Notes: generated from the sequence alone by a model not told the origin. Numbered from the stretch's first letter, positions 4,638 through 55,525 are shown. The stretch: 64,000 nucleotides of DNA from Thermoproteota archaeon (GCA_049700215.1 JBNAVT010000002.1:41981-105980), one strand, 5' to 3'. Program-made: numbers and translations.

Positions 4638-5546
4638 TCAGAGTTTCAAAACCTTCTTCGCATTCCCATGCATGATTTTATCATAGGCTTTTCGAGATAT
4701 TTTTCCCTCCTCTCTCAAGCCGCGGAGATATTTCAACTGGGGTATGTTCTGATCCGGCATGTCTAAGTCTGTTCCGAACATCAGCCTGTCTTGAAACTCC
4801 TCCAGGAACTGGACTCCGAACTCAGGGTCTCTCGAGACAGCGTTATACCCGCTGCCAGCCGAAAGATCCCCGTAAAGGTTTTGATATTTTTTGAACAAGT
4901 CGACAACTCTCCCGCCAGGCGCAACCCTGCCCGCCGGGTAGCTGTTCCTATCCTCCGGCTTAAGGTCTCCAGATATCTCAGCCCAGAATGGTTGAGAGTG
5001 CCCTATGAATATCAGGTTTGGAAACATCCGCAGGCATTTCTCAAGCCTAGGCAGGCCCGGCTCATCCGCAAGGCCGTAGCAGCCGCCAAGCTGAGGACCA
5101 ATATGGAATATTACGGGTAGCTCGAGTTCCTCGCAAACCCTGAAGAGGCTCAGGGTCCTCGGGTCGTCGAAGTATATGTTGGCAGTTATTTCACCCACGC
5201 CTTTACATCCCTCGTTTTTATAATCCTCCAATATGAATCTCAGGCTCTTTTCTGAGCCTGCGTTCAGCCTTGGATCCGGGTTTCAAAAAGGAATCCGCCT
5301 GCCTCTATGCTTTTTACAGAACTCTATTACCTCGCGAGTGGTCACCGGCTCTATGGTGCTTTCGGGGCTCGGCAGTGGGAGAACAATCGCTACGTCTATC
5401 CCCTCTTCCCCCATTCTTTTAACGAGTTCAGACACCGTTATCCACCGTATGTACTGGTTTTTAACGGGATCGTAAGAAAGCCAACTTGGCCCGGGAGAGC
5501 AATGCGCGTGAATATCGATTATCATGCTCACCGTCTCGCGGAGCAA
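4638..5546 (-). pseudogene. Metal-dependent amidohydrolase (TIM-barrel hydrolase) interrupted by one in-frame TGA
   Basis: ORFs 5283..5546 (MIIDIHAHC... metal-binding N-terminus) and 4638..5231 (C-terminal half) are in the same frame, separated by TGA at ~5283-5285. The spacer translates as ...RRIPF*NPDPRLNAGSEKSLRFILEDYKNEG, continuous with family homology. Confidence 0.6.
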
Positions 5547-5710
5547 GTTATTTAAGCATTCGGTTTAAACAGGAAGACGCGTACGCCTCTTTTCAAAGCG
5601 TGGTTTTGAGAACCCGAGTGCCGTAAACCTCTAGGGTTCAAAGTCGGTTGGGAACATGGAGGCGGAAATATTTAATATCCGCTGAAACAGTTTAATAGCG
5701 GTTTAAACGG

Positions 5711-7046
5711 TTGAGAAGCAGCCTAGCTCTCCTGGGGGGTTCGAAGACTGTTAGATCTGAACCCGGAGACATATTCGCCTGGCCGATTATAACGAGGGAG
5801 GTTGAGGAGGCTGTTTTAGAAGTACTCCGCGCTGGGAAAATGTCAGACGTAGATGTGACTCAAAAATTCGAAGAAGAGTTCGCTCAATGGTTGGGCGTGG
5901 AATACGCGCTTGCACACAACACTGGAACCGCTGCTCTGCACAGCGCGATGTTCGGCATAGGCATAGGGAAGGGAGACGAGGTCATTTGTCCAAGCATCAC
6001 CTACTGGGCCTCCTGTCTACAAGTCTACTCGCTGGGTGGGACCGTTGTCTTCGCTGACATTGATCCTGAAACGCTTTGTATTGATCCCATGGATATTGAA
6101 CACTGGATTACTCCAAGGACTAAGGCAATTATGGTTGTCCACTACCTTGGAATGCCGGCGGATATGGACGCGATAATGAAGATAGCTGAGAGAAACGGCT
6201 TAATGGTGATCGAGGATTGTTCTCATGCTCACGGCGCCCTTTATAAGGGTAGAATGGTTGGGACCTTTGGAGACGTTGCAGGCTTCTCGCTAATGTCAGG
6301 CAAATCTCTTGCTTGCGGCGAGGGGGGGAATGATGACTACGGGCGACAGGCGGATCTATGAGAGGGCAGTGGTCTTCGGCCATTATGAGCGCCACGGGTT
6401 TGCCCTAACGCTTGAAGACCTTAAGCGTGGATCAGGGTTGCCCTGGGGAGGTTACAAGTATAGGATGCACCAGTTAACCTCTGCAGTGGGCCGTGTCCAG
6501 TTGAAGCATTACCCGGAGATTATGGCTGAGATCGATAAAGCGATGAACTACTTCTGGGACCTGCTTGAAGGCGTCCCAGGGATCAGGAGCCATAGGCCTC
6601 CAAAAGACTCTGGGTCGACCAAGGGCGGGTGGTACGCACCCCACGGCATCTATCATCCGGAGGAGTTAGGGGGCCTATCTGTTAACCGGTTCTGCGAAGC
6701 AGTAAGGGCGGAGGGGGCTCCGTGCTACCCAGGATGCAATCTTCCGCTCCATCTACACCCCTTGTTTAACGAGGTAGACGTCTACAACCAGGGTAGGCCG
6801 ACGCGCATAGCAAATTCTCCCCCGGGCGTCGACGTGAGGCAGCCTCCGGGCAGCCTCCCTGTTTCAGAGAGCGTGCAGGAGCGGGTGTTCACTGTCCCAT
6901 GGTTCAAGCATTACAGACCCGAGATTATTGAAGAGTATGCTCAAGCATTCAGGAAGGTTGCTGAAAACTACATGGATCTTCTTCCGGGAGACGCTGAACG
7001 TGGCGAGCCTGCTGGTGGATGGAGCACTTTCTGGACTTCAAGGTAG
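5711..7046 (+). pseudogene. DegT/DnrJ/EryC1/StrS-family PLP aminotransferase, frameshifted in a G7 homopolymer (or sequencing error)
   Basis: ORF 5711..6361 gives ...GKSLACGEGG and ORF 6309..7046 gives MMTTGDRRIYERAVVFGHYER.... Removing one G from the G7 tract at ~6326-6332 restores GEGGMMTTG, matching the TTGEGG region of this family. Confidence 0.65.
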
Positions 7047-7134
7047 CGCTCGGGCTCCATGATACGGGGGAATTCGTGAAACAAGTCGGCATAGTAAACA
7101 GTTGGGCAGGCCGCTACGATTCCTTCCCCCGGAG

Positions 7135-7947
7135 TCAGTACCAGCCTAGTATTCCCATTGCTTCAAGCAGGTCGTCCCCACGGACGATGACAGTCCGGGA
7201 ATCGAGGCGTTCTACGCCGGGCGTTCTACACTGAACGTCCGCGTAATTCGGATGGGAGTATTCGACTTTAAGCACTATAGGGGGCTTAACTTTGAAAGGC
7301 TTGAAATCGGCGGCGTTTTTAACAGCCTTCTCAGCTGCCTCTCGAATCAGCTTCCTGCTCAATGCCGGCGGCAGACAAACCGCGAAGTTCCTGCTTAAGC
7401 CTTCTTTCACAGCAACGGTCTCAACCCTGCCCAGTAGAGCCCTAGCCTCCTCAACAGCAATCCTGCACCCGCTCACTAAAGCCACAGGTACTTCAAAATA
7501 CCCGAGGATTGCAGCATCTATCCCTATTTCGCCAACCCGCTTCTCGTTTACGTAAGCGTTGACTATGACCCTACTGGCCATCGTGTGGTCTAAAACCGCA
7601 CCCCTGCTCCCAGCCATAGCGTGGTACCCTATCATGAACGCTAGGCTAAAGCTCCTGTCGAGGCCAGCCATCCTACACGGCCTCGGCCCCCCGGTTACGT
7701 ACTTCGCCCCCTCATGCAGCTCCTCCGGGACAAGGTTAAAACCGCCTCGCGCCCCGTGCAGATCGTTTACCAGAACTTCTGAAGCACCCCCCTGCAAAGC
7801 TCCTTCTACAGCAGCATTCACATCCCTAGTTAGAAGAAGGCATGCTTCTTCGTATTCTCTGCTTCCAGGCTCTGTCTGCTGCTCGCGGACAATGTAGCTG
7901 GCGCCCTCCATGTCGGCTAGAACGTAAACCTTCATATCCACCACCAT
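7135..7947 (-). CDS. Peptidase M55 (D-aminopeptidase DppA-like)
   Basis: 270 aa. MKVYVLADMEGASYIV...NDLHGARGG...IGYHAMAG matches the M55 family pattern. Confidence 0.75.
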   Translation of the reverse strand: MVVDMKVYVLADMEGASYIVREQQTEPGSREYEEACLLLTRDVNAAVEGALQGGASEVLVNDLHGARGGFNLVPEELHEGAKYVTGGPRPCRMAGLDRSFSLAFMIGYHAMAGSRGAVLDHTMASRVIVNAYVNEKRVGEIGIDAAILGYFEVPVALVSGCRIAVEEARALLGRVETVAVKEGLSRNFAVCLPPALSRKLIREAAEKAVKNAADFKPFKVKPPIVLKVEYSHPNYADVQCRTPGVERLDSRTVIVRGDDLLEAMGILGWY

Positions 7948-8028
7948 TATATGGTTTTTCGAAGCCTTTAAGGATTTACAGGCCTAGCCGGAAGTTTCAT
8001 TCTAACATGATTAGCGTTCTCTCAACTT

Positions 8029-9495
8029 TTAAGGTTCATGCCGATCCACAGGCTCAGAAAGCCTTTTCCAGGCCCTACGCTTCTTATACAGGACTGCCGC
8101 CGCGCACGCGGCTACAAGTATTACGGCTACCGTTAATGGTTTAACATAGTCTATCCTCCAAACAGCTTTTACTACTCTAGACTCGTCAACATAGATTTCA
8201 ACGGTTCTCTCATCCACCATCCTGTCGTTTGGGCCTAGCCCCTCGAAATGGTCGAAAACGTAGAAGCCGCAGCTCGTTACATTCATCCGTATTAGAGCGT
8301 AGGAGCCTTCGTCATACCAGCCTGCGCCGTAGGCGTTTCCATACTCCGTTTCCACACTAATATAATGTTTCTCGGAAATCAACGCGTTTAAAAGGCCTGT
8401 TCGCCACTCTCCCTTAACCGGGTCGTAGGCTCCGAAGCCTGCGCAGAACTCCCAGTAGCACCAGGCTATTCCCCTCTTCTCCGCCTCTCTCGCTACGAAA
8501 CGTGTCCATCTCACCCTTGAATCCATATCTGCTTTACTGTAGGCTCCGAACTCGCCCATTAAAAGAGGGACACCGCCGTGTTGCGCTGCCCATTGGGCAG
8601 CCATATCCAATTCTTCAGTGATCTGTTTCTTCTCCGCCTCAGTCCCGAGCCATCGCTCACCCACGGCGGGAGAGGGACTAACCCACTCCGCCCCCTGATG
8701 GGTGAATTCGAACGGGGTGTAGAAGTGGAAGGTGACGATGATATTCTCATCCTGGGGGATCACTAGACTCTTAAGATTGTAGACACTGTTCCATCCCGTA
8801 GGGCCGATGATTATTTTTCTCGTGGGGTTTGTCTTCCTTATGGTTTCAACCGTCTCCTCAACAAGCTTGTTCCACTTCTCATCAGTCAACTCCCCGTAAG
8901 GCTCGTTCAGTAATTCGAAGTAAAGAGTTTCAGGATAATTCCTGTAGTGCTCGGATATTTGCCTCCATAAGGCTATGAAGCGGTCCCTATGGCTCAAGGG
9001 GTCTTGCATTATCTCCTCATAGTGATGAATGTTTATTATGATGATAAGATGCTGTTCCAAGGACTTGTTCACAACCCAGTCCACCCTGTTGAAGAAGTCT
9101 CCGTCTATCCTATAGGGCGGATTGTTCTCAGCGTGAGCTGACCATCTTATTGGTATTCGAACAGTGTCGAAGCCCGCTTCCCTTATCACGCTGAAATACT
9201 CGTCTCTAATGTAAACCCCCCAGTCGCCCTCCCTGGGCGCTTCTAAAGCGTTCCCGATGTTTATTCCTCTGCGCATCCCGGATTCCACGACTGCTTCTTC
9301 AAACCGGTAATCGTAAGCCAGCTGCGCCTGCTCACTATCTCCCTTCATGCTTACAAAATAGAACATAATTGTAAAAAGTAAGCCGGACAATAAGATGCAT
9401 GTTTCAAGCCTCCTCTCAAGCAGAGTCATCTCTAAACTCCTCTGCTGAAAACCTTTAAAAATATTATTCTCGGATGATGAAAGATATTTTCTCAA
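8029..9495 (-). CDS. Glycoside hydrolase family 5 endoglucanase (cellulase), membrane-anchored
   Basis: 488 aa. GH5 motifs ...FELLNEPYGELTDEKW (acid/base NEP) and LLMGEFGAYSK (nucleophile GEFG). Has an N-terminal signal-anchor and a C-terminal hydrophobic segment LTVAVILVAACAAAVLYKKRR. Confidence 0.85.
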   Translation of the reverse strand: MRKYLSSSENNIFKGFQQRSLEMTLLERRLETCILLSGLLFTIMFYFVSMKGDSEQAQLAYDYRFEEAVVESGMRRGINIGNALEAPREGDWGVYIRDEYFSVIREAGFDTVRIPIRWSAHAENNPPYRIDGDFFNRVDWVVNKSLEQHLIIIINIHHYEEIMQDPLSHRDRFIALWRQISEHYRNYPETLYFELLNEPYGELTDEKWNKLVEETVETIRKTNPTRKIIIGPTGWNSVYNLKSLVIPQDENIIVTFHFYTPFEFTHQGAEWVSPSPAVGERWLGTEAEKKQITEELDMAAQWAAQHGGVPLLMGEFGAYSKADMDSRVRWTRFVAREAEKRGIAWCYWEFCAGFGAYDPVKGEWRTGLLNALISEKHYISVETEYGNAYGAGWYDEGSYALIRMNVTSCGFYVFDHFEGLGPNDRMVDERTVEIYVDESRVVKAVWRIDYVKPLTVAVILVAACAAAVLYKKRRAWKRLSEPVDRHEP

Positions 9496-10651: not shown

Positions 10652-10751
10652 AAAGATGGAAAAACCTTATAAAGCTTTTTCCTTAAACTATTTTAAGCCG
10701 CTGCTTGTCTTTTGAATAAAGCATAAGTATTTAGAATGTTTCAAGATAACC

Positions 10752-11174
10752 ATGGGGGCTGGAGGAAAACACGGTAATTTTAAGGTTGCGGTCTACTGCA
10801 CGGTCCGTGACGTGAATGAAATGGCTGATTCAACCTGGCTGGAAAACAGTTTCAAGGTTTTGAGCAGGAGCATTCCTTTAGACAAGGTTTATCTTGAGAC
10901 CTTCGGCAGCGGTGCCTTGGCGGATAGAGGCTTAATGCAGAAGGTTAAGTCTTTTTTCAAAGATAAGGGTGTCGAGGTGTCCGGGGGAATAGCCACCAAT
11001 GGTCCACGCGGCCAATCTCTCTGCTACTCGAAGCCCGGCGACAGAGAAATGCTTGAAAACGTTGTCAAGTATACTGCTGAATTGTTCGATGAGATTATCC
11101 TGGATGACTGGCTCTTCACAAGCTGCAAGTGCGAAGCATGCGCGCGCGCTAAAGCTGGACCGAGTACCGTTTGA
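10752..11174 (+). CDS. Hypothetical protein, possibly the first fragment of a disrupted larger gene
   Basis: 140-aa ORF ending ...CKCEACARAKAGPSTV*. The next two ORFs continue without an intergenic gap in other frames. Confidence 0.35.
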   Translation: MGAGGKHGNFKVAVYCTVRDVNEMADSTWLENSFKVLSRSIPLDKVYLETFGSGALADRGLMQKVKSFFKDKGVEVSGGIATNGPRGQSLCYSKPGDREMLENVVKYTAELFDEIILDDWLFTSCKCEACARAKAGPSTV

Positions 11175-11485
11175 AGACTATGGAGGATGTTGCGCAAAAC
11201 ATCATCTTTAAAACAGCCAAGGAGGTTAACCCCAAGGTTAGGCTGATAATAAAATATCCAAACTGGTATGAGCATTACCAGTTTCTCGGCTACAGTCTCG
11301 ATTTCGAATCAAGAGTCTTCGACATGGTTTACACGGGCACTGAGACGAGAGACTCAGAGTATACTCATCAACACCTTCAGGAGTATCAGAGCTACGCTAT
11401 AATGAGGTTTCTGGAGAACGTTAAGCCGGGTTTCAACGGCGGCGGCTGGATTGATCCTTTTGCCAAGAGGCGCGCGCGCTCTTGA
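11171..11485 (+). CDS. Hypothetical protein, middle fragment of a possible disrupted gene
   Basis: 104 aa, protein-like sequence (...IKYPNWYEHYQFLGYSLDFESRVFDMVYTG...). Frame differs from the flanking ORFs. Confidence 0.3.
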   Translation: MKTMEDVAQNIIFKTAKEVNPKVRLIIKYPNWYEHYQFLGYSLDFESRVFDMVYTGTETRDSEYTHQHLQEYQSYAIMRFLENVKPGFNGGGWIDPFAKRRARS

Positions 11486-12500
11486 CCGTTACGCGGAGCA
11501 GATAAGGCTGACGCTCTTCGCTAAAGCCAGGGAGGTTACGCTCTTCTGCTACAGCGCCCTGCTCGAGTCCTTTAAGCAAGATGGGGCAAGAATTCCTATA
11601 AGCATCCTTGCACCAGTAGTCGGAACCATCTTCGAGGAGATGGATTTTCTTGTCGGGAAACTCGGCAACCCTTGTGGTGTTAAAAGCTATAAGCCGTTCA
11701 ACTCGTCCGGCGAGGATTTTCTTCAAAACTACATAGGCATGCTAGGAATTCCTGTCGAGATGACTCCGAGTTTCCCCGAGGCCAGTGAAACCGTGTTCCT
11801 AACCGAGTGTGCCAAGTTTGACGGCGGGATAATGGGGAAAATCAAGAAGCATCTTGTTAAAGGCGGGGACGTTATTATTACATCCGGTTTTCTGAGGGCG
11901 ATGCAGGATGAAGTGGTTAGAGAGCTGGCTGAGGTCAAATACACCGGTGGAAAAATACTTGTCAAAGACTTCTCACTAGGCTTTTTCCTTTTCGAAGATG
12001 TTTACCACTCGGATGTGGAAATACTTATCCCCCATATCAAATACCCGACTAACGATGTTTGGGAGGTCATTACGTGTTTAAGCAGGGGCAACGGATACCC
12101 GTTGCTGATGCTCATGAACTACGGGAGGGGAACACTATACCTACTTACAATACCGGATAACTTTAACGACCTATACCATCTCCCACCCACTGTTTTGAAC
12201 AGTATTAGAAGAATCTTCTCGAAGAATTTGAAAATAAGCCTTGAAGGACCAAGCAGGGTCTGCATTTTCCTTTACGACAACGATGCTTTAATCCTTCATT
12301 CATTCCTGCCTCATCCCTCTAGAGTCAGCGTTGTGGTTAAGGGCAAGGGTTTAAAGATGCGTGAACTCTCCTCGGGCGAGATACTTAACGGCTTCGAGAG
12401 GAAATGGGGGATGGTTTTGAAAGAAGTATTGAAACCGTGTTCCCGGTTTACTTGGCGTCGTCTTCCTACAGTGCTTTCAGGGTTGAATAATTATCTTTGA
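11451..12500 (+). CDS. Hypothetical protein, C-terminal fragment of a possible disrupted gene
   Basis: 349 aa, in the same frame as 10752..11174. (GC)5 tracts sit at ~11140-11149 and ~11472-11481, near both ORF junctions. Confidence 0.4.
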   Translation: MILLPRGARALDRYAEQIRLTLFAKAREVTLFCYSALLESFKQDGARIPISILAPVVGTIFEEMDFLVGKLGNPCGVKSYKPFNSSGEDFLQNYIGMLGIPVEMTPSFPEASETVFLTECAKFDGGIMGKIKKHLVKGGDVIITSGFLRAMQDEVVRELAEVKYTGGKILVKDFSLGFFLFEDVYHSDVEILIPHIKYPTNDVWEVITCLSRGNGYPLLMLMNYGRGTLYLLTIPDNFNDLYHLPPTVLNSIRRIFSKNLKISLEGPSRVCIFLYDNDALILHSFLPHPSRVSVVVKGKGLKMRELSSGEILNGFERKWGMVLKEVLKPCSRFTWRRLPTVLSGLNNYL

Positions 12501-12536
12501 AAAGTTTAAACCAGTTTAAAACTGGAGTGTTTCAGG

Positions 12537-13139
12537 ATGAACGCGTTTAAGCAGAATGAGCGGTTGGGCAGGGGGGTTAACATACTGGGTTACGACCCGG
12601 TTTGGAAAAACAGGTCTATGGCAAGAATGAGGAGCGAGCATTTTAGGCTGATAGGGAGCGTCGGCTTCAACAGCGTACGCATCGCTCTCCACCCTTTTCG
12701 CGACGGGGCTATGGGTTGGGGAAACCGGCTTTCGGAAGAGTGGCTTGAAACATTGGAATGGGCGGTTGAACAGGCTCTTGGAAACTGGCTTATGCCGATA
12801 ATCGATTTCCACGAGTTTATAATCATGGGGAGGGATCCGTCTGGAAACAGGGATAGGCTTCTCGCCTTCTGGGATCAGATTGGTAGACTCTACAGTAATT
12901 ATCCTGACGGAGTGGTTTTCGAGCTTCTAAACGAGCCCAATAGGGAGCTTACGCCTGAGCTTTGGAACCGTCTTCTCGCCGAGATCCTTAAAACAGTGCG
13001 CAAGACTAACCCGGATAGGACTGTGATAATAGGCCCAGCCGTCTGGAACAGCATAACCGGCCTTGATAAGCTGGTTCTCCCGGAGGAAGACAGGAATATA
13101 ATTGTAGCGCGCACTCACGTTTTGGTCAAACGCCTTTAA
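12537..13139 (+). pseudogene. GH5 endoglucanase N-terminal fragment (truncated paralogue of 8029..9495)
   Basis: 200 aa. Contains FELLNEPNRELTPELW but ends at ...NIIVARTHVLVKRL*, where the intact paralogue continues NIIVTFHFYTPFEF...GEFG. No frame carries the nucleophile region. The divergence point lies on the tagcgcgcac motif at ~13104-13113. Confidence 0.65.
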
Positions 13140-13302
13140 AAATTTGGAGTAGCAACCTTGAGGAAATTATTGCTCTAAGCTTGTATGAGCACCCTCTACT
13201 TAAGGTTAAGCGCGCGCTATTTGTATTGAATGTTAATCATCTCGTCTGTATATCTAGACGAAACTTAAATTCTTGCCTCGGAAAAGGGTTTTGGGCAGGT
13301 TG

Positions 13303-15039
13303 TCAACCTAGTGTTCCGAAGGGGAAAACGCCTGCTGAAACCCAGGCGAAGAGGAGCGCGTTGAAGACTGTGCCCGTGCCTATGGATGAGGTAATCCTGT
13401 GAAGCCACCATGAGCACGCGGTTGAGGTGACGAATTGCACCGTTATGAGCGGAAGGAACTCTATTAGGAAGCCGAGGAAAGAGGTGAGCGGCTTAACTTC
13501 GAACAGGAACATCGGGATATACTGCACGCCCATTACGAGAATGTAGGGTGCAATCTTGATCCCGATGGTTCTAAGCATTTCCAGGGCTTCCGGGAGAAAA
13601 CCGTTCTCCCTGCTTCCGCCGCGCAGAATATGCAGGTAAATCGCTTCAACGTAGAAGAAGACCAGGAAGAACGGTATGAGGGTTAGAAACAGTATGATTC
13701 TCTCCGGAACGCGGAGAACTCTGAAAATGGGTACGAAAATCCAAAGGTTCATGTCTAGGAATAGATGCACAAGGTAAACAATGGTGTAGAGCATTAGGAA
13801 CATGCTTACTGCAACCAAGACTCCTCGCCGCGTGAAGGATTCTGATGCTAATCTTCTCATTCTCAGCCTAACGCCTAAAAATCTAGGCATGGCAAACAGG
13901 ATGAGAGAACCCCCGGCTAAAGCAACCATGAGCAGCCACCAGGCTATTGAGGAGCCGAATAAAACTGGTGGGAAAGGCAGGCTGAAGCCCAGTATGAACG
14001 CTGGTAGGAGCAGCGCTATGCTCAGAGCCCCCCAAATAACCATAATCTTCCAGTCTTTAAGGGAGCCATGCTCCCGCGCCCTCTTATTCTGGGGCTTGCG
14101 CGGCGAGATGAACGTGGAGACCGGGAAGGTTAAACCTACTAGCGAGAAGACGCTCAGGAGCATCATTGTTTCACGGTAGGGGTATGTTAAGCCTTCTTCC
14201 AGCAGCCCGATTCGGCTTGCTCCACTGGGCTTGAGAGCGCTGCCCATCCAGACAACTGTTTCGGAAACAATAGTCGGGTCGAGGGGTTCAAGCAGATGGG
14301 TTGTAGCTGGGGCTACTAGTTTCCTTGCGGTTCCAGAGTTGAAATCACCGTATAGTCTTCCAGGAGAAACCTCATGAACCCCGAAAACCGGGGGTAGCCA
14401 TTCCCCAGCAACCTGGTTCAGGTTGAAAAGAACGTCCTGCCTACCTATGGCTACCAGCAGGTTCCTTGGGAAAGTGGTGTTTAGAACCCCGTATTCCAAC
14501 GGGCTGGAGGCCATTCCGCCTAAGCCTCCCGCTATGAGCACGGTTGCTTTAACCCCCCGGTGGGCGGCGGCAGCAGCCCTGACCGCTCCAGCACCCAAGC
14601 TGTGCCCAACTAGGCCGAGTGAAGAAGCGTCTACATACGGCAGCTTTTCAACGTATCTTAAGGCTGCAATAGCCCCGAGGCTGGGGTCCTTAGTTGCGCC
14701 GAGCCGCCCACCGGAGTCGCCATGGCCCACAACATCTATCGATAATGCGACGAAGCCCCTTCTAGCGAGCTCTAAGGCTATGCTGCTCATGGATTCTTTA
14801 GCACTGCTGATACCGTGCACAAGGACTACTGCCGGCATAGGGTTCTCCACGGTGGCCGCATGCGGGCGGTATAGTGCCCCGCTTATGTAGTGTTCGCCAT
14901 CCGGTATTCTAACAGTTTTTACTTCAAGCCTTCCGAAGTCGTTGTTTATTAGGAATGCTGCGACTGTCCCTAGTAGGAAGACAGTGGCTAAAACAATCAG
15001 TGTCAAACAGCTTGTTCCCGCTGGCCCCATGCGTGTCAA
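13303..15039 (-). CDS. Alpha/beta-hydrolase (serine esterase/lipase-like, GHSLG) fused to a C-terminal polytopic membrane domain
   Basis: 578 aa. N-terminal anchor, then VVLVHGISS...GLVGHSLGAG (GxSxG nucleophile elbow), followed by ~8-10 hydrophobic helices over the C-terminal 300 aa. TATA aaatatatagg upstream on the minus strand. Confidence 0.7.
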   Translation of the reverse strand: MTRMGPAGTSCLTLIVLATVFLLGTVAAFLINNDFGRLEVKTVRIPDGEHYISGALYRPHAATVENPMPAVVLVHGISSAKESMSSIALELARRGFVALSIDVVGHGDSGGRLGATKDPSLGAIAALRYVEKLPYVDASSLGLVGHSLGAGAVRAAAAAHRGVKATVLIAGGLGGMASSPLEYGVLNTTFPRNLLVAIGRQDVLFNLNQVAGEWLPPVFGVHEVSPGRLYGDFNSGTARKLVAPATTHLLEPLDPTIVSETVVWMGSALKPSGASRIGLLEEGLTYPYRETMMLLSVFSLVGLTFPVSTFISPRKPQNKRAREHGSLKDWKIMVIWGALSIALLLPAFILGFSLPFPPVLFGSSIAWWLLMVALAGGSLILFAMPRFLGVRLRMRRLASESFTRRGVLVAVSMFLMLYTIVYLVHLFLDMNLWIFVPIFRVLRVPERIILFLTLIPFFLVFFYVEAIYLHILRGGSRENGFLPEALEMLRTIGIKIAPYILVMGVQYIPMFLFEVKPLTSFLGFLIEFLPLITVQFVTSTACSWWLHRITSSIGTGTVFNALLFAWVSAGVFPFGTLG

Positions 15040-15519
15040 CGTTTTTCCTTAAGCCTATATATTTGTTTCCCTATGCTTTCTGCAAGCGTGTTGTTCAACG
15101 TTTTCACGCGTGCCCGAACCGTTTCCACTTAAGGCTGGTTTCACGTTTTCCCCGCCTATGGTTCTCCGATTTAAATTACTTATATCATTGAGTAGCAGTA
15201 ATTCGACTTAGCGCGCTGTATTCGAGCAAAAAAGTATTGGTAGAGCAGGCGAGCCTGATCCAGAACGGACTTTGATCCTTTCTATTTCGTGAAAGAACAT
15301 TACAGGAAACAGAGGTTGGTTGAGCGAAGACGCTGAAGCCTCCAGACAAAGAATGTTTACGGGATGGGTTGCACATCTCCATTTTTACTCCTGGCCGCGG
15401 GCGGGTTACTTACGTAGAGTATGTGAAGCCTTAACAATAATGGGAATCAGGAAAAGCGTAGCGCGCACTATAATCTTTGCAGGATTAAAATATTTGTTCT
15501 CTAAAGGGGTTTTATGGGG

Positions 15520-17302: not shown

Positions 17303-17308
17303 CTCCGG

Positions 17309-26735: not shown

Positions 26736-26850
26736 GAAGAGATGTATAAATGCTAAGCTTAATCTGCAATACCGTTTATACGGTTTTGCGATAGACTTAG
26801 TAGTCATGAATGTCGAGAATCCTTGTTTATTTTCTAGACGAGCTAACTTA

Positions 26851-27685
26851 GAGCATGTTTCAAAACCCCTTCTTCCTCCCATTCGCCCGCTTGTAGCATA
26901 TCAGCGCGCACGCCAAGTTCAGGAACGCCTGGTATGTACACTGCAACCTCTCGTACCTGACCTTGAGCCTCCGGTACTGGTTGATCCACGCCTGCGCCCT
27001 CTCCACAGGCCAGAGCTTCCTATACCTCCTCGGCCTCCGCCTCCTGTTCAGCAGGGGGATTATGCCCCTCTTCCTTAGTTCCCTCCTCAGCGGCTCCGAG
27101 TCGTACGCCTTGTCTCCCTTGAGCTTTAGCGGCCTTCCCACTCCATGCCTTATCGGAGGTATCGCGTCGACCAGCCTCAGGGCTACTGTAGAGTCGTGCG
27201 CGTTCGCTCCTGTAACTATTGCAGCGAGAGGGAGCCCCCTCGAGTTGGCTATGACGTGCCTCTTCGTGCCGTTCTTGGCCCTGTCCGTCGGATTGGGGCC
27301 TGTCGAGCGCCCCCTTTTAGAGCCTGCACAGGAGAGCTGTCTATCATCGCAAGCCTCATGCTTGGCTCGGCCCTATCGAGCATCTCCTTCCAGACCCTCT
27401 TCCATATGCCCTTTCGCTGCCATTCTCTAAGCCTCCTCCAGCAGCTAGGTCCGGAACTGTACTCCTTTGGGAGGGCATTCCAGGGGCAGCCGTTTAAGAG
27501 CACGTAGAGTATTCCGAGCATCGCTGTCCTGTTCGGCACAGGTGGCCTGCCGGGTGTTCCAGGGGGCTTCTGCTTCGGAAGCATGGGTTCTATTATCTCC
27601 CAAAGATCGTCCGTCAGAACCTTCTCGGGTCTAGCCATGGGGAGAGGAGGTCAGAAGGCTTGGATAAGGGTTTTGAAACACGCTC
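26851..27685 (-). mobile_element. IS5-family insertion sequence (IS427/IS1031-like), ~835 bp, with imperfect terminal inverted repeats and TTA target duplication
   Basis: Left end gagcatgtttcaaaaccc versus reverse complement of right end gagcgtgtttcaaaaccc (17/18). Flanking TTA at 26848-26850 and 27686-27688. Encodes a two-frame IS5-type transposase. Confidence 0.75.
26860..27638 (-). CDS. IS5-family DDE transposase, orfA/orfB in two frames (programmed -1 frameshift type, or inactivated)
   Basis: orfA 27249..27638 reads LTDDLWEIIEPMLP...NRTAMLGILYVLLNGCPWNALPKEY...CWRRLREWQRKGIWKRVW (DUF4096/IS5 N-terminus). orfB 26860..27141 plus upstream extension reads ...GRPLKLKGDKAYDSEPLRRELRKRGIIPLL (IS5 C-terminal DDE region). 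Confidence 0.75.
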
Positions 27686-27690
27686 TTAGT

Positions 27691-28122
27691 TTAAGTCTGC
27701 ATATAAAACTGCTCTTTAAAAAGCCTTATTTTCTTGAAACACTCTTCCTCCTCGCCGCAGTCTGCAACAAGCTTTTCAAACGGGCAGACATCGTTCTTCA
27801 TCCTGTTTAGGATTTCGGGAACAAGTTTATCATACTCGACGCTTATACTCTTCTCCTTCAAAGCGGCTAAGCCCTTCCTACTTACTACTTCCGCGTACAC
27901 TTCAGCAATATTAGCACGCCGGCAGAGCATTGCTGCTGCTCTGCCAACAACCCTGTCGGCAACAGCAGCCCCTGATAACTCTACACCATGGTTTTCAATA
28001 GCTTCAACAAGCCCCACGACGCCGTATTTCCTAGTCGCATGGATGAAAGCTCCTTGCTTAACTATAACTAGGCTGAAACCACCGTTTTTCAAAATCCTCT
28101 TAGCCGTCTCCAAGCCATTCAT
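27691..28122 (-). CDS. Hypothetical protein (possibly DUF1893-like)
   Basis: 143-aa ORF. ...DRVVGRAAAMLC... segment. The stop lies 5 bp from the IS right end. Family assignment is tentative. Confidence 0.4.
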   Translation of the reverse strand: MNGLETAKRILKNGGFSLVIVKQGAFIHATRKYGVVGLVEAIENHGVELSGAAVADRVVGRAAAMLCRRANIAEVYAEVVSRKGLAALKEKSISVEYDKLVPEILNRMKNDVCPFEKLVADCGEEEECFKKIRLFKEQFYMQT

Positions 28123-29464: not shown

Positions 29465-32340
29465 ATGTATAGGGATGAGGCGGTGGTTTGGAGTCCCGGG
29501 GATTCTGAGAAAATTGCTGGTTTTCTGAGGCGCGTATCCCCAGGTTTCACCGAGAACGCTCAGGCCAGGGCCTGGGTTGAACCTGACGGCAGGATCCTTC
29601 TTCAAATAGTGTTCATGAAAGAGGGTGTTGCAACCAGGATGCTTGAAACATTTGTCGTTAAGGATGATGGTGGGAACATCGTCAGGGTTGAGCCTCCTGA
29701 GGCGACTGGTGAAGCGGGGGAGAGCCAGCTGGAAGGCGGTTCCCAGAATCCCTGTTTAAAAACCCTTGGGGATCGCCTCAGGGTTCTCAACTGGCATCAT
29801 AGTAATTCTCTGGCTGCTGTTGCTAAGAGGCTGGTGGGCCTCGAGGTTTTTTCCACACTTCCTTCTAAAGAGGTTGACTGGGCGAGCAGTGTTTTCAACC
29901 AGGTTTTCCCCGAGTCCCCTTTAACCCTCAGGCCCTACGGGTATTTTGATAAGGAGACGAGAGAGTACGTTATAACTCGGCCAGACACGCCTACGCCCTG
30001 GATAAACTATCTCGGCCAAGGAGGCTACGGCGGAATAATATCTAACACTGCTGGAGGTTTCTCGTTCGACCGTGACCCCCGTAACCGTCGGGTTACAAGG
30101 TACCGGTACAACGCTATTCCACTGGATCAGCCTGGGCACTATATTTATCTTAGGGATGATGAAACCGGGGAGTTCTGGAGTCCAACTTGGCAGCCTGTTA
30201 AGAACAGCCTTGAATGGTATGAGTGTAGGCATGGCGCAGGCTATACTCGTATAAGCAGCAGGCGTAACGGGGTTGAGGCCTCAATACTCTTCTTCATCCC
30301 ACCTAATCCCCCCTACGGGGAGTGTCCTGTCGAGCTTCATGTGCTACGCTTAAAAAACACTAGCGCCAGCGTTAAGAGCCTGAGCATATGGTCCTACGAG
30401 GAGCTGTCATACTGGGATGCTATCGTTGACACGACTAACCTGGATTGAGGTCAGCAAATAGTTTCAAGCTCCTACAGGAATGGTGTTATTGTCACGGGGG
30501 TTCAGTTTAAACCTACTAGAACGTTCCTCGCAAGCAGCCTCGCCCCAGATGGTTACGACACTAGCCGCGAGGTTTTCGTGGGGAGCTACGGCGACCTCTC
30601 CAGGCCGCAGGCGGTTGTCAGCGGCAAGCCGGGTTACAGTATTGCTTCACGCGGCAACAGTATTGCTTCCCTCAGACATTTTCTGGAGCTGAAGCCCCGG
30701 GAGGAGGAGACAATAGTCTACGTGCTTGGCGTGACTGATAAGCCGAGTCTAATACCTGAAACCGTTGAACACTATAGTGTCGTAGAAAACGTTGAGAAGG
30801 CTTTTAAAGAGCTTGGAGAAAACTGGGGCGAATACCTTGGGAAGCTAACTGTTGAAACACCGGATGAGGAGATGAACGCTATGATAAACTTCTGGAACGC
30901 TGTTCAGTGCTGTGCCAACCTCTACTGGTCTAGATTCGTCTCCCTGTACGATACTGGTTTAGGAAGAGGCATGGGGACGCGTGACTCTGCTCAAGACACT
31001 TTGGGCACTGTGCATAATGATCCTCAGCATGCACGCAGGGTTCTGAAAATGCTCTGGAAACTACAGTTTAAAGATGGGCACACCTGGCACCAGGTTTTCC
31101 CGCTTACTGGCGAGGGGGGGCCTGGGCATGCTGCAGAATCTCCTGAGAAACCCCAGTGGTTTAGCGACGACCACCTTTGGCTCATCTTAGCGACCTGCAG
31201 CTATCTCCGTGAAACGGGTGACTTCACACTCCTGGATGAGAAGCTGCCATACCAGGATAGTGACGCGGAGGAGACTGTTTGGGAACACGTAGAGAGGGCG
31301 GTAGGCTTCACCTGCAGGAAAAGAGGATTACACGGCCTGCCGCTGATCGGCTTCGCAGACTGGGATGACACTATGAATCTTGACCATGGTTCTGAGAAGG
31401 CTGAAAGCGTCTGGACGGGGATGCTTTTCTGCAGGGTTATGCTTGACCTTGCGGAGCTTTGCAAGAAGCTTGGGCGCGTGGAGAAGATGATGGAGTTTGA
31501 AAAGCTTCACAGGGAGATGGCTGAAACAATAAACCGGGTTTCATGGGATGGTGAATGGTATGCTAGGGCTTACGACGACGAGGGCAGGCCTGTCGGCATT
31601 AAGGGTAAGAAGTATCACTGGATAAGTCTTATTCCGCAGGCTTGGTCGGCTATTGCTGAGCTCGGCGAAGAAGAGAGGTCGAGGAAAGCCTTGGAGAGTG
31701 CACGCCGGTTTTTAAACAGCCTTTAGGATTAAGGCTGATGAGAGACCCGTTTAACAGCAGTAAGACGGATGAGGATTCAGTGGATGTTGAGAGCCTGAGG
31801 CGTTTCGGCGGAACAGCAACATACCCGCCTGGGCTCAAGGAGAATGGTGGAATATTCAACCATGCTAACACTTGGGTTATTGTTGCAGCCGCCAAGCTCG
31901 GGCTTGGAGACCTCGCCTACCAGTTTTACAGCCAGATAATGCCGCTTAGACGTAGAGATACGGATGCTCTTAAGACTGAGCCCTACGTGTATTCTCAGAA
32001 TCTGGCTGCCCCGGAGCATCCTGAGTATGGGCGTGCAAGAAACTCGTGGCTCACCGGCACAGCCTCATGGGTTTACGTGGCTGCGACACAATGGATTCTC
32101 GGCATACGCCCCACCTTCGAAGGGTTGAAAATATCTCCATGCATACCGGAATCCTGGAGCGGCTTCAAGGCTCGAAGGGTCTTCAGAGGAGTGACGTACA
32201 ATATTCTCGTTAAACGTGTTGGAAAGGGTAACAAGGTTTCGCTCAAGGTGAATAGTAAGCATGTTCCCGGAGAAGTTGTTCCGCTTCCAATCGAGGATGT
32301 GGCGAGCGTGGAAGTAGAGGTCGCGCTCGGAGGGCAATAG
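29465..32340 (+). pseudogene. GH94 cellobiose/cellodextrin phosphorylase, disrupted by one in-frame TGA (~30446) and one frameshift (~31720)
   Basis: Three ORFs cover the N-terminal domain (RPYGYFDKETREYVITRPDTPTPWINYLG), the catalytic (alpha/alpha)6 region (GRGMGTRDSAQDTLG) and the C-terminal domain (NGGIFNHANTWVI...). ORF1 and ORF2 are in the same frame and separated by TGA (...TTNLD*GQQIV...). ORF2 to ORF3 needs a 1-nt correction near aacagcc/tttagg. Confidence 0.75.
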
Positions 32341-47830: not shown

Positions 47831-47922
47831 AAGGCCCTTATTAATCCTTAAGCCGCCTTAGAAAACCTTTAAAGAAACCTGTTTAGAGAGACGCTATTCA
47901 AAACGGTGAGGAGGGTAACTGG

Positions 47923-49065
47923 TTGGAGCCCGAATGCTCAAGCAGTATTCCGGTGCTTGACGATGTTGAGGCAGTCAGGATGATCGATAAGGGAAACATG
48001 CGGCTCATGATATCCTCGTTTCCAGCTTTACTGAAAGAGGCGGTGGAGCTGTCCAGGGGCCTGCGTCTTCCTGAAGGCTACAGGAACGCCAGGGAGATTA
48101 TTGTGTGCGGGATGGGTGGCTCAGCCATAGGTGGAGACCTTTTCAAAGACCTCTCTCAAGCGATGAGCCCGCTACGAGTCTCCGTAATCAGGGACTACGA
48201 CCTGCCTAGGCACGTTGACGAGAGTAGCCTGGTGGTGGCGGTAAGCTATTCCGGGAACACTGAGGAAACGCTTGAGTCCTTCAAGCAGGCTTACGAGAGG
48301 GGTTCCCGGATAATTGGTATTGCTTCCAACGGTCTGCTGGGGAAGGCTTGCTCCAAGCTTAAAATCCCGTTCATAGGGGTTCCATCCGGGTACACGCCTA
48401 GGTCAGCGCTTCCACTGCTATTCATACCATTGTTGAAAGTGGCTGAGGAAATAGGTTTCCCAATGGTGGGAGAGGGTGAGCTGGCTGAAGCCCACGGGCT
48501 GATTGAAGAGTATAATTCTAAACTCACCCCGGAAGTGCCTTTAAGCCGGAACCCGGCTAAGCAGCTGGCTGCTAGGCTGCATCAGAAGCTTCCAATCATA
48601 TACTCCATGGGACACTTGAAATCCGTCGCCCTAAGGTATAAGGATCAGATTAATGAGAACGCTAAGATGAGGGCTATGTGCGACCAGCTTCCAGAGGCAA
48701 ACCATAATGAGGTTGAAGCATGGGAGAAGGTTGATTTCAAAGAGCTCCTCCACGTTGTTTTCATCGACAGCCGTTTCAAGAACCCCTATATCGCTGAAAG
48801 CGTCAACAACCTTGTTTCAAAGATTGAGAAAGAGGGTGTTGGATTAAGCATGGTTAAACCGCTTGGCGGAACAATGCTTGAAGAGATGCTTTCAGCCATA
48901 ATACTGGGGGACTGGGCTAGCTACTACCTTGCTATACTTAGGGGGGTTGACCCAGCTCCCGTCAGCCTAATAAGTGAGCTGAAGAAGAAGCATGATGAGA
49001 AAACGAGATACTCTGAAAAGTTTGAAGAATGGCTGTGTAAGCTCGGTGAAAATGGTGAAGACTAG
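47923..49065 (+). CDS. Bifunctional phosphoglucose/phosphomannose isomerase (SIS-domain, archaeal PGI/PMI type)
   Basis: IIVCGMGGSAIGGDLF, VVAVSYSGNTEET SIS motifs. The N-terminal start is uncertain. Confidence 0.7.
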   Translation: MEPECSSSIPVLDDVEAVRMIDKGNMRLMISSFPALLKEAVELSRGLRLPEGYRNAREIIVCGMGGSAIGGDLFKDLSQAMSPLRVSVIRDYDLPRHVDESSLVVAVSYSGNTEETLESFKQAYERGSRIIGIASNGLLGKACSKLKIPFIGVPSGYTPRSALPLLFIPLLKVAEEIGFPMVGEGELAEAHGLIEEYNSKLTPEVPLSRNPAKQLAARLHQKLPIIYSMGHLKSVALRYKDQINENAKMRAMCDQLPEANHNEVEAWEKVDFKELLHVVFIDSRFKNPYIAESVNNLVSKIEKEGVGLSMVKPLGGTMLEEMLSAIILGDWASYYLAILRGVDPAPVSLISELKKKHDEKTRYSEKFEEWLCKLGENGED

Positions 49066-49853: not shown

Positions 49854-50016
49854 TCTGTCGCTGTTCGAATCAAGATTTTTAAACAGTTTTGCAAGGTTTT
49901 GGCATGAACGTTTTTTAACTGTTTCGTTCTACGAGCGTGCACGATGAAACTTAATAAACCCCTCCTGTGAAATCTTTCCAGTTGAAAAGTGTTGACGGGA
50001 GGGGAGATGCCGGGCG

Positions 50017-52284: not shown

Positions 52285-52343
52285 ACAGGCTTAGAGGAGA
52301 AAACATTTATTTATTTCAGTCGTGGAGACTAGTTGAGCAAGCC

Positions 52344-53198
52344 ATGTGTGCAAGCGTAAGGTACAGGCCTCCTGAGACAGCTGAAATAGGTATTTTCGGG
52401 GGAACCGGCAACTATGATCCTTCATACCTTCAGGACGCTAAACAGTTTAAAGTATACACGCCCTACGGGCCGCCCTCAGACCTTGTAACAGTAGGGTGGG
52501 TTAAAGACAGGAAGGTTGCCTTCCTGCCGAGGCACGGCAGGCACCACACAATACCGCCTTACAGGGTCAACTACAGGGCCAACGTCTGGGCCTTTAAAAC
52601 GCTGGGTGTAACCAGGATAATAAGCCCCGCCGCCGTCGGGAGTCTTCAACCGGAGTTCATAAAGCCCTATGAGTTCGTCGTGGTAGACCAGTTTTTCGAC
52701 AGGACGACGAACAGGAGGAGCCTCTCCTTCTACGAGGGCGGTGTCGTTGGGCACGTCCCCTTCAGCGACCCAGTCTGCCCGGAGCTGAGGAGAATATTCT
52801 TGGACTCAGGTAGGAGGGTGCTTCCCAACGTGAAGATCCACCCAACCCCGGAGGAGGAGGCGGGGGGAAAATCGTTCACATACGTAACCATCGAGGGCCC
52901 GAGGTTCTCAACGAGAGCTGAATCGCTCTTCTACAAGAGCCTAGGGTTCTCAGTCGTAGGTATGACGGCAGTGTCTGAAGCATACTTGGCGAGGGAGGCT
53001 GAGATATGTTTCCTCAGCATCGCGCTCATCACGGACACGGACGTGTACGGTTTAATGCCGGTTACGGCTGAAAGGGTTGCTAAAAGCATGAGGGAGAACG
53101 TTGCGAACGTCAATAGGCTTATCTACGAGACAATCCCCACGATACCGAGGGAGAGGAAGTGTGGCTGTGACACTGTGCTGGATGTTTCACTCTACTGA
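52344..53198 (+). CDS. mtnP: 5'-methylthioadenosine phosphorylase (PNP family)
   Basis: 284 aa. IGIFGGTGNYD, ...FLPRHGRHHTIPP...VNYRANVWAFKTLGV, plus a C-terminal Cys pair typical of hyperthermophile MTAPs. Confidence 0.9.
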   Translation: MCASVRYRPPETAEIGIFGGTGNYDPSYLQDAKQFKVYTPYGPPSDLVTVGWVKDRKVAFLPRHGRHHTIPPYRVNYRANVWAFKTLGVTRIISPAAVGSLQPEFIKPYEFVVVDQFFDRTTNRRSLSFYEGGVVGHVPFSDPVCPELRRIFLDSGRRVLPNVKIHPTPEEEAGGKSFTYVTIEGPRFSTRAESLFYKSLGFSVVGMTAVSEAYLAREAEICFLSIALITDTDVYGLMPVTAERVAKSMRENVANVNRLIYETIPTIPRERKCGCDTVLDVSLY

Positions 53199-53255
53199 GG
53201 AGGCTGGGGGTAAAAATCCCGACGAGGGCTCAGCAGACGGGGGAGAAGGATACGG

Positions 53256-54365: not shown

Positions 54366-54367
54366 CG

Positions 54368-54643
54368 CTATATCCCTTCAGACCTGCCGACGAAAAGTAT
54401 GTTGCTCCCTCTGACCAGTACAAGGTTAAAGTTGACGGCTTCCCTATCCCCCTCGTACTCCATCGTGCCGCTCATAATCAGGTTCATCTGAGTATCCACG
54501 TTAAGCAGCATCCCCCTGTATACTGAGTGATCGTTTTTAAGCCTGAGGAAAACCTTCTTGCCAACCATGCTTCTAAGAACGTTCAGCGGCCTCTTGTTAA
54601 CAGTCTCGTCGACACTCCGGTTGCTCAACTTCGGAAAAAGCAA
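54368..54643 (-). CDS. Sm-like archaeal protein (SmAP/LSm)
   Basis: RPLNVLRSMVGKKVFLRLKNDHSVYRGMLLNVDTQMNLIMSGTMEY is an Sm1/Sm2 fold. The ORF-track start is a TTG. The true start is probably a downstream TTG or ATG. Confidence 0.85.
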   Translation of the reverse strand: MLFPKLSNRSVDETVNKRPLNVLRSMVGKKVFLRLKNDHSVYRGMLLNVDTQMNLIMSGTMEYEGDREAVNFNLVLVRGSNILFVGRSEGI

Positions 54644-54764
54644 CTTACTGCTCCCTATATAAAAATTGCTGGCTGAAGAGGGATTAACAGCTTTCCACCG
54701 GAAATCAGCGTCCAGTCTCTCACCAGCCGGGTGCTTATATACAAGCGTGCGCTAGCTGTAAACA

Positions 54765-55525
54765 CTAGTAGGGAAAGCCTTCAGCCATCTCAGCGTCGGA
54801 AAGCTCCTTAAGGAGGATGGCAATTCTCTCCACAGCAGCCTCCAATATCTTCTCCCCCTTCTCACTAGATGATTTCAACGGGTTTCCGAAGCCGGAGTTC
54901 CTGGTTAAAACATGCCAGGGCCTCGTAAACCTGGCCCAAGAATAGGAAGACTCAACCTTGGGTGTATTCACAGTCCCCTCCTCCGCCTCCCACATGTGCA
55001 CGAGACACGGGAACAGGGCAAGCCCAACGCTTGTCTCAAACTCGTCGCCATGCTCCCCGGGCTCCTCTATAATCCTGCTCCTCACATCGTCGACTGTTCT
55101 CCACCAGTCTACTGTGACGATGAAAACCCTGGTCCTGCCGTAGAGGTCTCGCATCAAGGGTGTGAAATCGTTACCGCCATGCCTGTTTAGAATAACTAGT
55201 TTCATCACACAATGGTGCTCGAGCGATTCAACGATATCTCTAACCACCATGTTCAGTGTCGACTGGTCGAGGTTTATCGTCATCGGGAAGCCGAGCGAGT
55301 TCTTGTTGAACCGTAGGGTATGGCGGGGAGCATAACCACTTTAGCACCCATCTCTACAGCCTTTCCGCAAGCCATCTCGGCAACAGCCTTAGCCTGGTAG
55401 AAATCCATTCCATAGGGCAAGTGTAGGCCATGGGGCTCGGTTGAGCCGACAGGTAGAACAGCAACCTCAAACCTAGACTCCTTAACATCCTTAAGCGTAG
55501 ACTCCTGAAGGTTTCACGCAACCAT
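54765..55525 (-). pseudogene. Creatininase-family amidohydrolase (ArfB-like) with in-frame TGA at codon 4 and a -1 frameshift
   Basis: From ATG at ~55523-55525 (TATA aaatttatatg ~30 nt upstream) the sequence reads MVA*NLQESTLKDVKESRFEVAVLPVGSTEPHGLHLPYGMDFYQ...IPYGST, then shifts frame into ...FPMTINLDQ...LNRHGGN...EHGDEFETS (ORF 54765..55283). The indel is near an AA/AAA run at ~55290-55310. Confidence 0.6.

Follow-up and report, generated by a model that had tools for sequence, protein, structure and literature searches.

Disrupted genes in the window

We analyzed a stretch of 64,000 nucleotides (hereafter the window) from an NCBI metagenome-assembled genome (MAG) labelled 'Thermoproteota archaeon', a Brockarchaeota-like organism from the Zavarzin spring, Kamchatka. 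Three genes of the window, coding for an amidohydrolase, a GH94 (cellobiose-phosphorylase-like) protein and a creatininase-family protein, contained in-frame TGA codons (Table 1). These TGAs lie exactly where they were originally predicted and, as had also been claimed, homology runs straight across each of them, with Pfam domains and close orthologues aligning on both sides. The original prediction described each gene as having a single TGA in otherwise conserved sequence, but GH94 and creatininase also carry 1-nt deletions and the amidohydrolase gene is 5 nt short at its 3' end.

Table 1. Disrupted genes, individual lesions and sites of disagreement between assemblies (window coordinates; asterisk, stop codon)
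Feature	Position	Strand	Details
Amidohydro_2 (PF04909) pseudogene	4638..5525	-	Pfam match 1-289/289 spanning stop
TGA at near-invariant Cys codon (PFCNPDPR)	5283..5285	-	reads ...RRIPF*NPDPRL...
5-nt deletion, amidohydrolase 3' end	4640..4641	-	private to this assembly
DegT/DnrJ/EryC1 aminotransferase pseudogene	5711..7046	+	Pfam positions 3-182 and 177-325 in two frames
SSO3021-like glycoside hydrolase in three ORFs	10752..12500	+	both junctions at (CG)n tracts
Truncated GH5 cellulase fragment	12537..13139	+	PF00150 positions 5-190 of 272 only
GH94 (cellobiose-phosphorylase-like) pseudogene	29465..32340	+	PF06165 and PF17167 split across two frames
TGA at conserved Trp codon (NLDWGQQIV)	30446..30448	+	reads ...TTNLD*GQQIV...
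1-nt deletion, frameshift in GH94	31718..31719	+	shifts last 206 codons
Creatininase-family (PF02633) pseudogene	54765..55525	-	Pfam positions 2-67 in one frame, 69-236 in another
Gly-to-Cys (HHGV to HHCV) in creatininase	55209..55211	-	Gly invariant in 13 compared homologues
1-nt deletion (AAA to AA), creatininase frameshift	55306..55307	-	shifts last 180 codons
TGA at near-invariant Trp codon (MVAWNLQE)	55514..55516	-	reads MVA*NLQE...
Hypothetical 416-aa gene, 1-nt deletion (TTT to TT, ~57890-57891)	57643..58820	-	nucleotide alignment
Assembly disagreement	4640/4641		5-nt deletion
Assembly disagreement	11478-11479		+/- GC
Assembly disagreement	14558		C6 vs C5
Assembly disagreement	52516-52520		4-nt difference

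The amidohydrolase is 87% identical to an intact 298-aa orthologue (P0001). Multiple alignments showed Cys at the TGA column in 20 of 21 homologues and Asn in the remaining one. In the orthologous locus L001 the codon is TGC, from which a C-to-A change gives TGA. The same TGA was present in ENA contig NODE_82 (L007), where it is the only lesion of the gene, and an 87-aa ORF (P0375) was found on a Logan contig of the same cluster. The shortened C-terminus reads ...LKL* in the window, compared with ...LKLDFE* in L007 and LKLDLE in orthologues. The dN/dS ratio of this gene (0.079) was as low as that of its intact neighbours.

Intact GH94 orthologues are 957 aa long, and all 13 homologues that cover the TGA column have Trp there; the codon is TGG in locus L002, one G-to-A change away from TGA. 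The TGA was also found in Logan contig SRR6344962_100017 (L008). At the deletion site the window reads AAACA-GCC, compared with AAACACGCC in L004 and AAACACTCC in L002, and tblastn alignments switch frame at position 31720. The 200-aa ORF downstream of the frameshift was called separately in ENA NODE_6309 and NCBI GCA_964543825.1 as well, and the C-terminal translations of the window and L004 are 94% identical. L004 itself (95% nucleotide identity) has a net in-frame deletion of 570 nt in GH94 that removed most of the supersandwich domain. The window sequence deviates uniquely at 12 otherwise invariant columns, versus 0-4 columns for each of the ten closest full-length homologues in the comparison, and dN/dS of the N-terminal part against L004 was 0.60, versus 0.08-0.22 for neighbouring genes; both features may be signs of relaxed constraint on GH94.

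Creatininase orthologues (254-266 aa) are 87-92% identical to the window gene, and Trp occupies the TGA column in 15 of 15 aligned homologues. The codon is TGG in locus L003, from which a G-to-A change gives TGA, and ENA NODE_754 (L009) reads the same TGA as the window. We found no ATG, GTG or TTG in frame between this TGA and VLPVGSTEPHG, in agreement with the prediction that the gene lacks an alternative start in this interval. The 1-nt deletion (GGTTC-AACAAG in the window, GGTTCAAACAG in L003) is likewise shared with L009. Besides the Gly-to-Cys change listed in Table 1, a Gly-to-Arg change was observed in NGHGGN, in a column that is not strictly invariant and has Ser in one homologue. The dN/dS values were 0.09 over the C-terminal 181 codons and 0.17 over the N-terminal 83 codons. 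The amidohydrolase and creatininase genes (0.08-0.17) are inside the range of neighbouring genes, so that these two do not yet display relaxed selection; such unraised values would fit very recent inactivation and do not prove loss of function.

The three genes had been singled out as a set, but at least four other genes of the window are frameshifted or truncated, i.e., a DegT aminotransferase, an SSO3021-like glycoside hydrolase, a GH5 fragment and a hypothetical gene of 416 aa. The DegT gene has a +1 frameshift in a G7 run at 6322-6328 (GAGGGGGGGAATG at 6320-6332), which is common to the window and L007; L001 is in frame at this run (GEGGMM) but has at least seven other private 1-nt indels in DegT. 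The three ORFs of the SSO3021-like protein are in frames 0, 2 and 0, and between assemblies its (GC)n tract at approximately 11470-11481 varies by 2 nt in length; the protein was identified from precomputed Pfam hits (PF28584, PF27250 and PF28585) over consecutive ORFs of L007. For the hypothetical gene, tblastn with the 416-aa protein of L003 switched frame, and L009 again agreed with the window. The original prediction overlooked the frameshifts in GH94 and creatininase as well as the general presence of broken genes in the window. About 47 other genes are colinear and undisrupted, including those for CDC48, Cdc6, NucS, SUI1 and deoxyhypusine synthase. An in-frame stop associated with a SIS/PGI gene (approximately 47860-47923) was considered as a further lesion and rejected: it lies upstream of the real start, and the same 380-aa gene was called in same-strain contigs.

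Comparison of assemblies

Other assemblies of the same population were reached through exact-protein matches to Cdc6 and to ORF fragments, whereas exact-protein look-ups with the M55 peptidase and deoxyhypusine synthase gave no match. They comprised the ENA/MGnify assembly ERZ3623746 (NODE_82, NODE_754 and NODE_6309), its NCBI copy GCA_964543825.1 and Logan contigs of SRR6344962, and were at least 99.94% identical to the window. The reads are short (84 nt; PMC8468003, Table 2), and we assumed the Illumina platform. SPAdes k-mer coverage, taken from contig names, was low (4-5.6).

Each lesion was seen again in one or more further assemblies of the population (MGnify and its NCBI copy, Logan, or both), although the window, MGnify and Logan assemblies were probably built from one read set and would then not be independent biological samples. 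The window and MGnify contigs disagreed at four slippage-prone indel sites in approximately 43 kb (Table 1). Some of these sites break a gene in one assembly only, i.e., the esterase and PNP genes in MGnify contigs and the amidohydrolase 3' end in the window. This disagreement points to either microdiversity or some indel miscalls in the data set.

Origin of the in-frame TGAs

When compared with intact orthologues, the reading frames are disrupted by stops at Cys, Trp and Trp sites and, in GH94 and creatininase, by frameshifts. Taken together, these data strongly favour real, recent nonsense mutations in genes that are being lost, that is, ordinary gene decay with no recoding signal. Point mutations would have turned sense codons into stops in accessory genes that are probably dispensable in one population of this uncultivated hot-spring archaeon. 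The TGAs appear to be part of a wider decay, since single-base indels and truncations struck the same and neighbouring genes, mostly hydrolytic or carbohydrate-related. In total, nine disruptive lesions were found in 6 of 56 genes; with random placement of nine lesions, six or fewer genes would be hit with P ~0.03 and three or more genes would be hit twice with P ~0.01. From this pattern we infer that the affected genes are non-functional and that their loss is tolerated under relaxed selection. In addition, comparison with related sequences shows that GH94 and DegT decayed independently in relatives.

Nonsense mutation was among the options originally proposed, with TGG or CGA as the precursor codon. 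The mutational origin and TGG were borne out by the codons of orthologues (84-95% nucleotide identity to the window), but CGA was not; the precursors are TGG in GH94 and creatininase and TGC in the amidohydrolase. These precursors also largely account for all three stops being TGA: by single changes a Cys codon can become no stop other than TGA, and a Trp codon is about equally likely to become TGA or TAG.

An alternative is that the stops are leaky. UGA is the leakiest stop codon and can be decoded by Trp or Cys near-cognates. If near-cognate tRNA-Trp or tRNA-Cys decoded these stops at a low level, the residue encoded before the mutation would be restored, as each TGA arose from a TGN codon (Trp, Trp and Cys). 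Such routes from TGN to TGA account for ~6% of one-step nonsense routes in the codon usage of the window (~11% at an assumed 4:1 transition weight), and the nominal probability of three of three TGN-derived stops is ~2e-4 to 1.5e-3, a post hoc figure with n = 3; with Trp and Cys codons taken as the precursors, however, the probability that all three stops are TGA is ~0.25. Read-through was an option of the original prediction, but it could not rescue GH94 or creatininase because both are also frameshifted, and a functional enzyme could realistically be expected from the amidohydrolase only, in which the TGA is the sole lesion in L007 and dN/dS remains low. Even for this gene, a stop at the site was found in none of 21 aligned orthologues. 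A scan with the degenerate pattern ATHCCNTTYTGAAAYCCNGAYCCNMG over metagenome_contigs and genome_contigs, covering 241 million metagenome records and GTDB species representatives, returned only two matches, both of them non-homologous and due to chance; an exact 35-mer spanning the TGA had no match in genome_contigs, a collection without the source MAG. Furthermore, no structured element was detected 3' of the amidohydrolase: the fold of 4520-4660 on the minus strand (141 nt, comprising the last 20 coding nt and 3' flank) was no better than shuffles (z = 0.04). No sign of programmed read-through or recoding was seen at the three sites, where the stop and its context are not conserved and all orthologues have sense codons. 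We therefore regard read-through as unlikely. The related idea that the TGAs are self-correcting nonsense alleles preferentially tolerated in this thermophile, so that the amidohydrolase might still yield some active enzyme, is slightly more doubtful still.

Errors of sequencing or assembly were also considered in the original prediction. If the TGAs and frameshifts were consensus miscalls of a low-coverage metagenome assembly, the genes would be intact in the cells. The low k-mer coverage and the four sites of indel disagreement, some of which break a gene in one assembly only, are in line with such errors. However, the three TGAs and the four frameshifts compared in this way (DegT, GH94, creatininase and the 416-aa hypothetical gene) are the same in two or three assemblies, for which different assemblers were used, and short-read substitution errors do not repeatedly reach consensus. 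Miscalls would also leave the concentration of lesions in a few accessory genes, with two each in three genes, the excess of amino acid changes at invariant GH94 sites and the damage that GH94 and DegT suffered independently in relatives from other samples to be accounted for separately. Since the same lesions were found again in one or more further assemblies of the population, this explanation has little chance of being correct.

The amidohydrolase TGA could instead encode selenocysteine (Sec) where homologues have the conserved Cys, as alignment of TGA with Cys in nearly all homologues is the classic Sec/Cys signature. Several lines of evidence argue against it. The GH94 and creatininase TGAs align with Trp, and neither the orthologue alignment nor the two collection-wide pattern scans revealed an orthologue with TGA at the amidohydrolase site. 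The search for SECIS-like hairpins 3' of this gene, which had been suggested as a formal check, gave only the shuffle-like fold described above; Rfam had no match in the window at the gathering threshold, and no tRNA gene, including tRNA-Sec, was found within the 64 kb. The Cys appears to sit in a metal-dependent hydrolase fold with no redox motif. To our knowledge, the only archaea reported to use Sec are some methanogens and Asgard archaea; we know of no Sec use in this lineage, and a literature search found nothing tying Sec to Brockarchaeota. A Sec reading is very unlikely and has next to no weight in our assessment.

Finally, reassignment of UGA to Trp or another sense meaning, with two of the three TGAs at conserved Trp positions in its favour, has virtually no probability and is refuted by codon usage within the window, as originally stated: the 47 intact genes contain 188 TGG and not one in-frame TGA, TGA ends 18 of them at the same position as in their orthologues and is the commonest true stop, the third site is a Cys, and the same genes are frameshifted.

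Implications and comparison with known systems

A role in polysaccharide degradation is discussed for Brockarchaeota-like archaea. If gene decay is the correct reading, the GH94 phosphorylase, SSO3021-like glycoside hydrolase, GH5 copy, creatininase-family amidase, amidohydrolase and DegT aminotransferase should be treated in annotation and metabolic inference as pseudogenes and not as capabilities; two of the fragments are at present annotated by NCBI as proteins, one of 82 aa as 'hypothetical protein' and one of 172 aa as 'creatininase family protein'. That sister lineages suffered independent damage in GH94 and DegT hints that accessory genes are still being lost in a lineage-specific manner. 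These TGAs add nothing to the knowledge of recoding or the genetic code.

With regard to known systems, the window resembles UGA-to-Trp reassignment (translation table 4) in having two TGAs at Trp positions, but here TGA is the commonest genuine terminator and is absent inside all intact genes. Archaeal selenoprotein genes, which have an in-frame UGA and a SECIS element in the 3'-UTR, are similar in that a conserved Cys has given way to TGA at one of the three sites; in contrast to them, the amidohydrolase has no SECIS-like structure, its TGA is not conserved, and the other two TGAs replace Trp. The disrupted genes differ in nothing essential from unitary (non-processed) prokaryotic pseudogenes, the host here being known only as a MAG and loss of function being inferred. 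As in such pseudogenes, single-base stops and indels occur where orthologues are intact, several lesions accumulate per gene, housekeeping neighbours are intact, relatives have lost the same genes independently, and an IS element lies nearby.

Probable pseudogenization of the TGA-containing genes

The three genes interrupted by TGA codons, which code for an amidohydrolase, a cellobiose-phosphorylase-like protein (GH94) and a creatininase-family protein, are very probably ordinary recent pseudogenes of an uncultivated Brockarchaeota-like archaeon, as part of a broader decay that affects accessory hydrolase and carbohydrate genes. The window is derived from an NCBI MAG labelled 'Thermoproteota archaeon' (locus tags ACPL4E_, 109.5-kb contig), and its mates in 90%-identity clusters were Candidatus Brockarchaeota. 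All three TGA codons were located where the original prediction had placed them, and no alternative in-frame start was present between the creatininase TGA and VLPVGSTEPHG. Pfam matches were found for each gene: Amidohydro_2 spanned the amidohydrolase end to end, through the TGA, GH94 had both the supersandwich and catalytic domains, and the third gene matched the Creatininase family. The TGA column was occupied by Cys in 20 of 21 aligned amidohydrolase homologs (PFCNPDPR, identity up to 87%; Asn in the other one), and by Trp in all 13 GH94 homologs covering the site (NLDWGQQIV) and all 15 creatininase homologs (MVAWNLQE). Orthologous DNA from relatives (loci L001–L004), reached by exact-protein look-ups, gave the ancestral codons as TGC, TGG and TGG, respectively.

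The original description of a single TGA within otherwise conserved sequence missed several frameshifts. Both GH94 and the creatininase gene also lost their frame through single-base losses, such that catalytic-domain Pfam positions 2–302 and 320–420 of GH94, and Pfam positions 2–67 and 69–236 of creatininase, were in different frames; the neighbor of the amidohydrolase, a DegT/DnrJ/EryC1 aminotransferase gene (DegT), was split as well. In GH94, 12 deviations private to the window occurred at alignment columns without variation among 15 homologs; the ten closest full-length homologs compared had 0–4. Its dN/dS against the closest relative, L004 (from a different JGI metagenome, 3300031749; 95% nucleotide identity), was 0.60, 0.13 and 0.24 for the N-terminal, middle and C-terminal parts, versus 0.08–0.22 for neighboring genes. 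Values for the amidohydrolase (0.079) and creatininase (0.17 for the N-terminal 83 and 0.09 for the C-terminal 181 codons) were inside the neighboring-gene range, which would be compatible with very recent inactivation.

Features and lesions of the window (bracketed bases are those of orthologous DNA)
Feature	Position	Observation
Amidohydrolase 3' end	4640/4641	5 nt absent relative to MGnify contig; protein 3 residues shorter; discordant site
Amidohydrolase TGA	5283-5285	minus strand, RRIPF-TGA-NPDPRL
DegT	5711-7046	extra G (+1) in G7 run, 6322-6328
GH5 cellulase	8029-9495	intact
SSO3021-like glycoside hydrolase	10752-12500	three ORFs; frame changes at (CG)n tracts, ~11141-11149 and ~11470-11481
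Discordant site	11478-11479	plus or minus GC
GH5 paralogue	12537-13139	Pfam positions 5-190 of 272
Discordant site (14558)	14553-14558	C6, C5 in MGnify; 578-aa esterase intact, split in MGnify
IS5-family element	26845-27691	847 bp; 24-nt terminal inverted repeats (26845-26868, 27668-27691), 92% complementary
GH94 TGA	30446-30448	plus strand, TTNLD-TGA-GQQIV
GH94 frameshift	near 31718/31719	AAACA[C]GCC
Discordant site	52516-52522	4-nt difference in small palindrome of MTA phosphorylase gene, plus one SNP; gene intact, split in MGnify
Creatininase frameshift	55306-55307	GGTTC[A]AACA
Creatininase TGA	55514-55516	minus strand, codon 4, MVA-TGA-NLQE
MttB methyltransferase and 92-aa ORF	55799-57589	MttB gene at 56114-57589
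MscS gene remnant	55799-55861	last 21 codons
Hypothetical gene	57643-58820	ATAGA[T]TTC, one T lost from TTT, ~57890-57891

Occurrence of the lesions in other assemblies

Other assemblies of the same population (≥99.94% identical) were identified by exact look-ups with proteins and ORF fragments from the window. The amidohydrolase TGA and DegT frameshift were present in ENA ERZ3623746 NODE_82 (L007), both creatininase lesions and the frameshift of the hypothetical gene in ENA NODE_754 (L009), the GH94 frameshift in ENA NODE_6309 and NCBI GCA_964543825.1 (L012, L013), and the GH94 TGA in Logan contigs of run SRR6344962 (L006, L008). In addition, an 87-aa ORF corresponding to the amidohydrolase N-terminus (P0375) was encoded by a Logan contig that belongs to the same 90% cluster. 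A single low-coverage read set probably underlies these assemblies; SRR6344962 represents 84-nt reads from Zavarzin hot spring, Kamchatka (PMC8468003 Table 2). Four slippage-prone indel sites were discordant among assemblies, and therefore strain microdiversity or occasional low-coverage indel miscalls exist, either of which may account for the differences between the window and MGnify. The lesions under test fall outside these sites.

Recoding and the origin of the TGA codons

Read-through of the TGA in the amidohydrolase is improbable, and GH94 and the creatininase gene, being also frameshifted, are beyond rescue by it. Cys codons can give rise only to TGA, and Trp TGG may become TGA or TAG via equivalent G-to-A transitions. 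Given Cys, Trp and Trp precursors, the probability of three TGAs was ~0.25. Unconditioned, TGN-to-TGA changes represented 6–11% of one-step nonsense routes under window codon usage, so three of three is nominally unusual, a post hoc observation with n = 3. The TGN origin of all three codons is the basis for a speculative leaky-stop reading, in which near-cognate tRNA-Trp or tRNA-Cys would put back the original residue.

Selenocysteine was rejected. Only the amidohydrolase site had Cys in homologs, its 3' region folded no better than shuffled sequences (z = 0.04), and neither Rfam nor a tRNA scan gave any match in the window. Across GTDB species representatives and the JGI metagenome collection, a degenerate IPF-TGA-NPDPR pattern matched only twice, in both cases by chance and in non-homologous sequence, and a literature search found nothing tying Sec to this lineage. 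A code change, already excluded in the original prediction, was also rejected: TGA ended 18 of the 47 intact genes at orthologous ends, and inside these genes TGG occurred 188 times and TGA never. The three TGAs are not a recoding phenomenon, and their recognition as pseudogene lesions serves annotation and metabolic inference.

Probable decay of accessory genes in the window and in relatives

When all genes called on L001–L004 were compared with the window by tblastn, approximately 47 were colinear and undisrupted, such as CDC48, Cdc6, NucS, SUI1, deoxyhypusine synthase, MTA phosphorylase, an ABC transporter and isopropylmalate/isocitrate dehydrogenase. The disrupted set included the three TGA-containing genes, DegT, a hypothetical gene that lacks a Pfam match and whose L003 counterpart encodes 416 aa, an SSO3021-like glycoside hydrolase and, adjacent to the intact GH5 cellulase gene, a shortened GH5 paralogue, which is probably a gene remnant. 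Nine disruptive lesions occurred in 6 of 56 genes, three of which had two each (P ~0.01–0.03 under random placement). One GC unit in the second (CG)n tract of the SSO3021-like gene differed between the window and L007, and this tract is either polymorphic or miscalled.

The intact MttB-family gene (no in-frame TAG) and a 92-aa ORF stood where L003 has an MscS channel gene, of which only the end was recognizable in the window. The IS5-family element, in which a DUF4096 transposase ORF overlaps the DDE_Tnp_1 transposase ORF that follows it, was intergenic, between ABC ATPase and TM1506-family genes, and was not present at the orthologous locus L002.

Relatives had lesions of their own. GH94 of L004 (1065–3356) did not have the window's frameshift and carried a net 570-nt in-frame deletion (window 29940–30519 replaced by 10 nt), which removed ~190 codons, or most of the supersandwich domain, and would represent a second, independent inactivation. 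DegT of L001 (8376–10000; 86% identity across the gene, ~82–88% overall) carried no fewer than 7 private indels of 1 nt but kept the correct frame at the window's G-run; judged by these sequences, its decay appears independent and more advanced. Together, the GH94 deletion and the DegT indels suggest that the same genes are being lost independently in related lineages.
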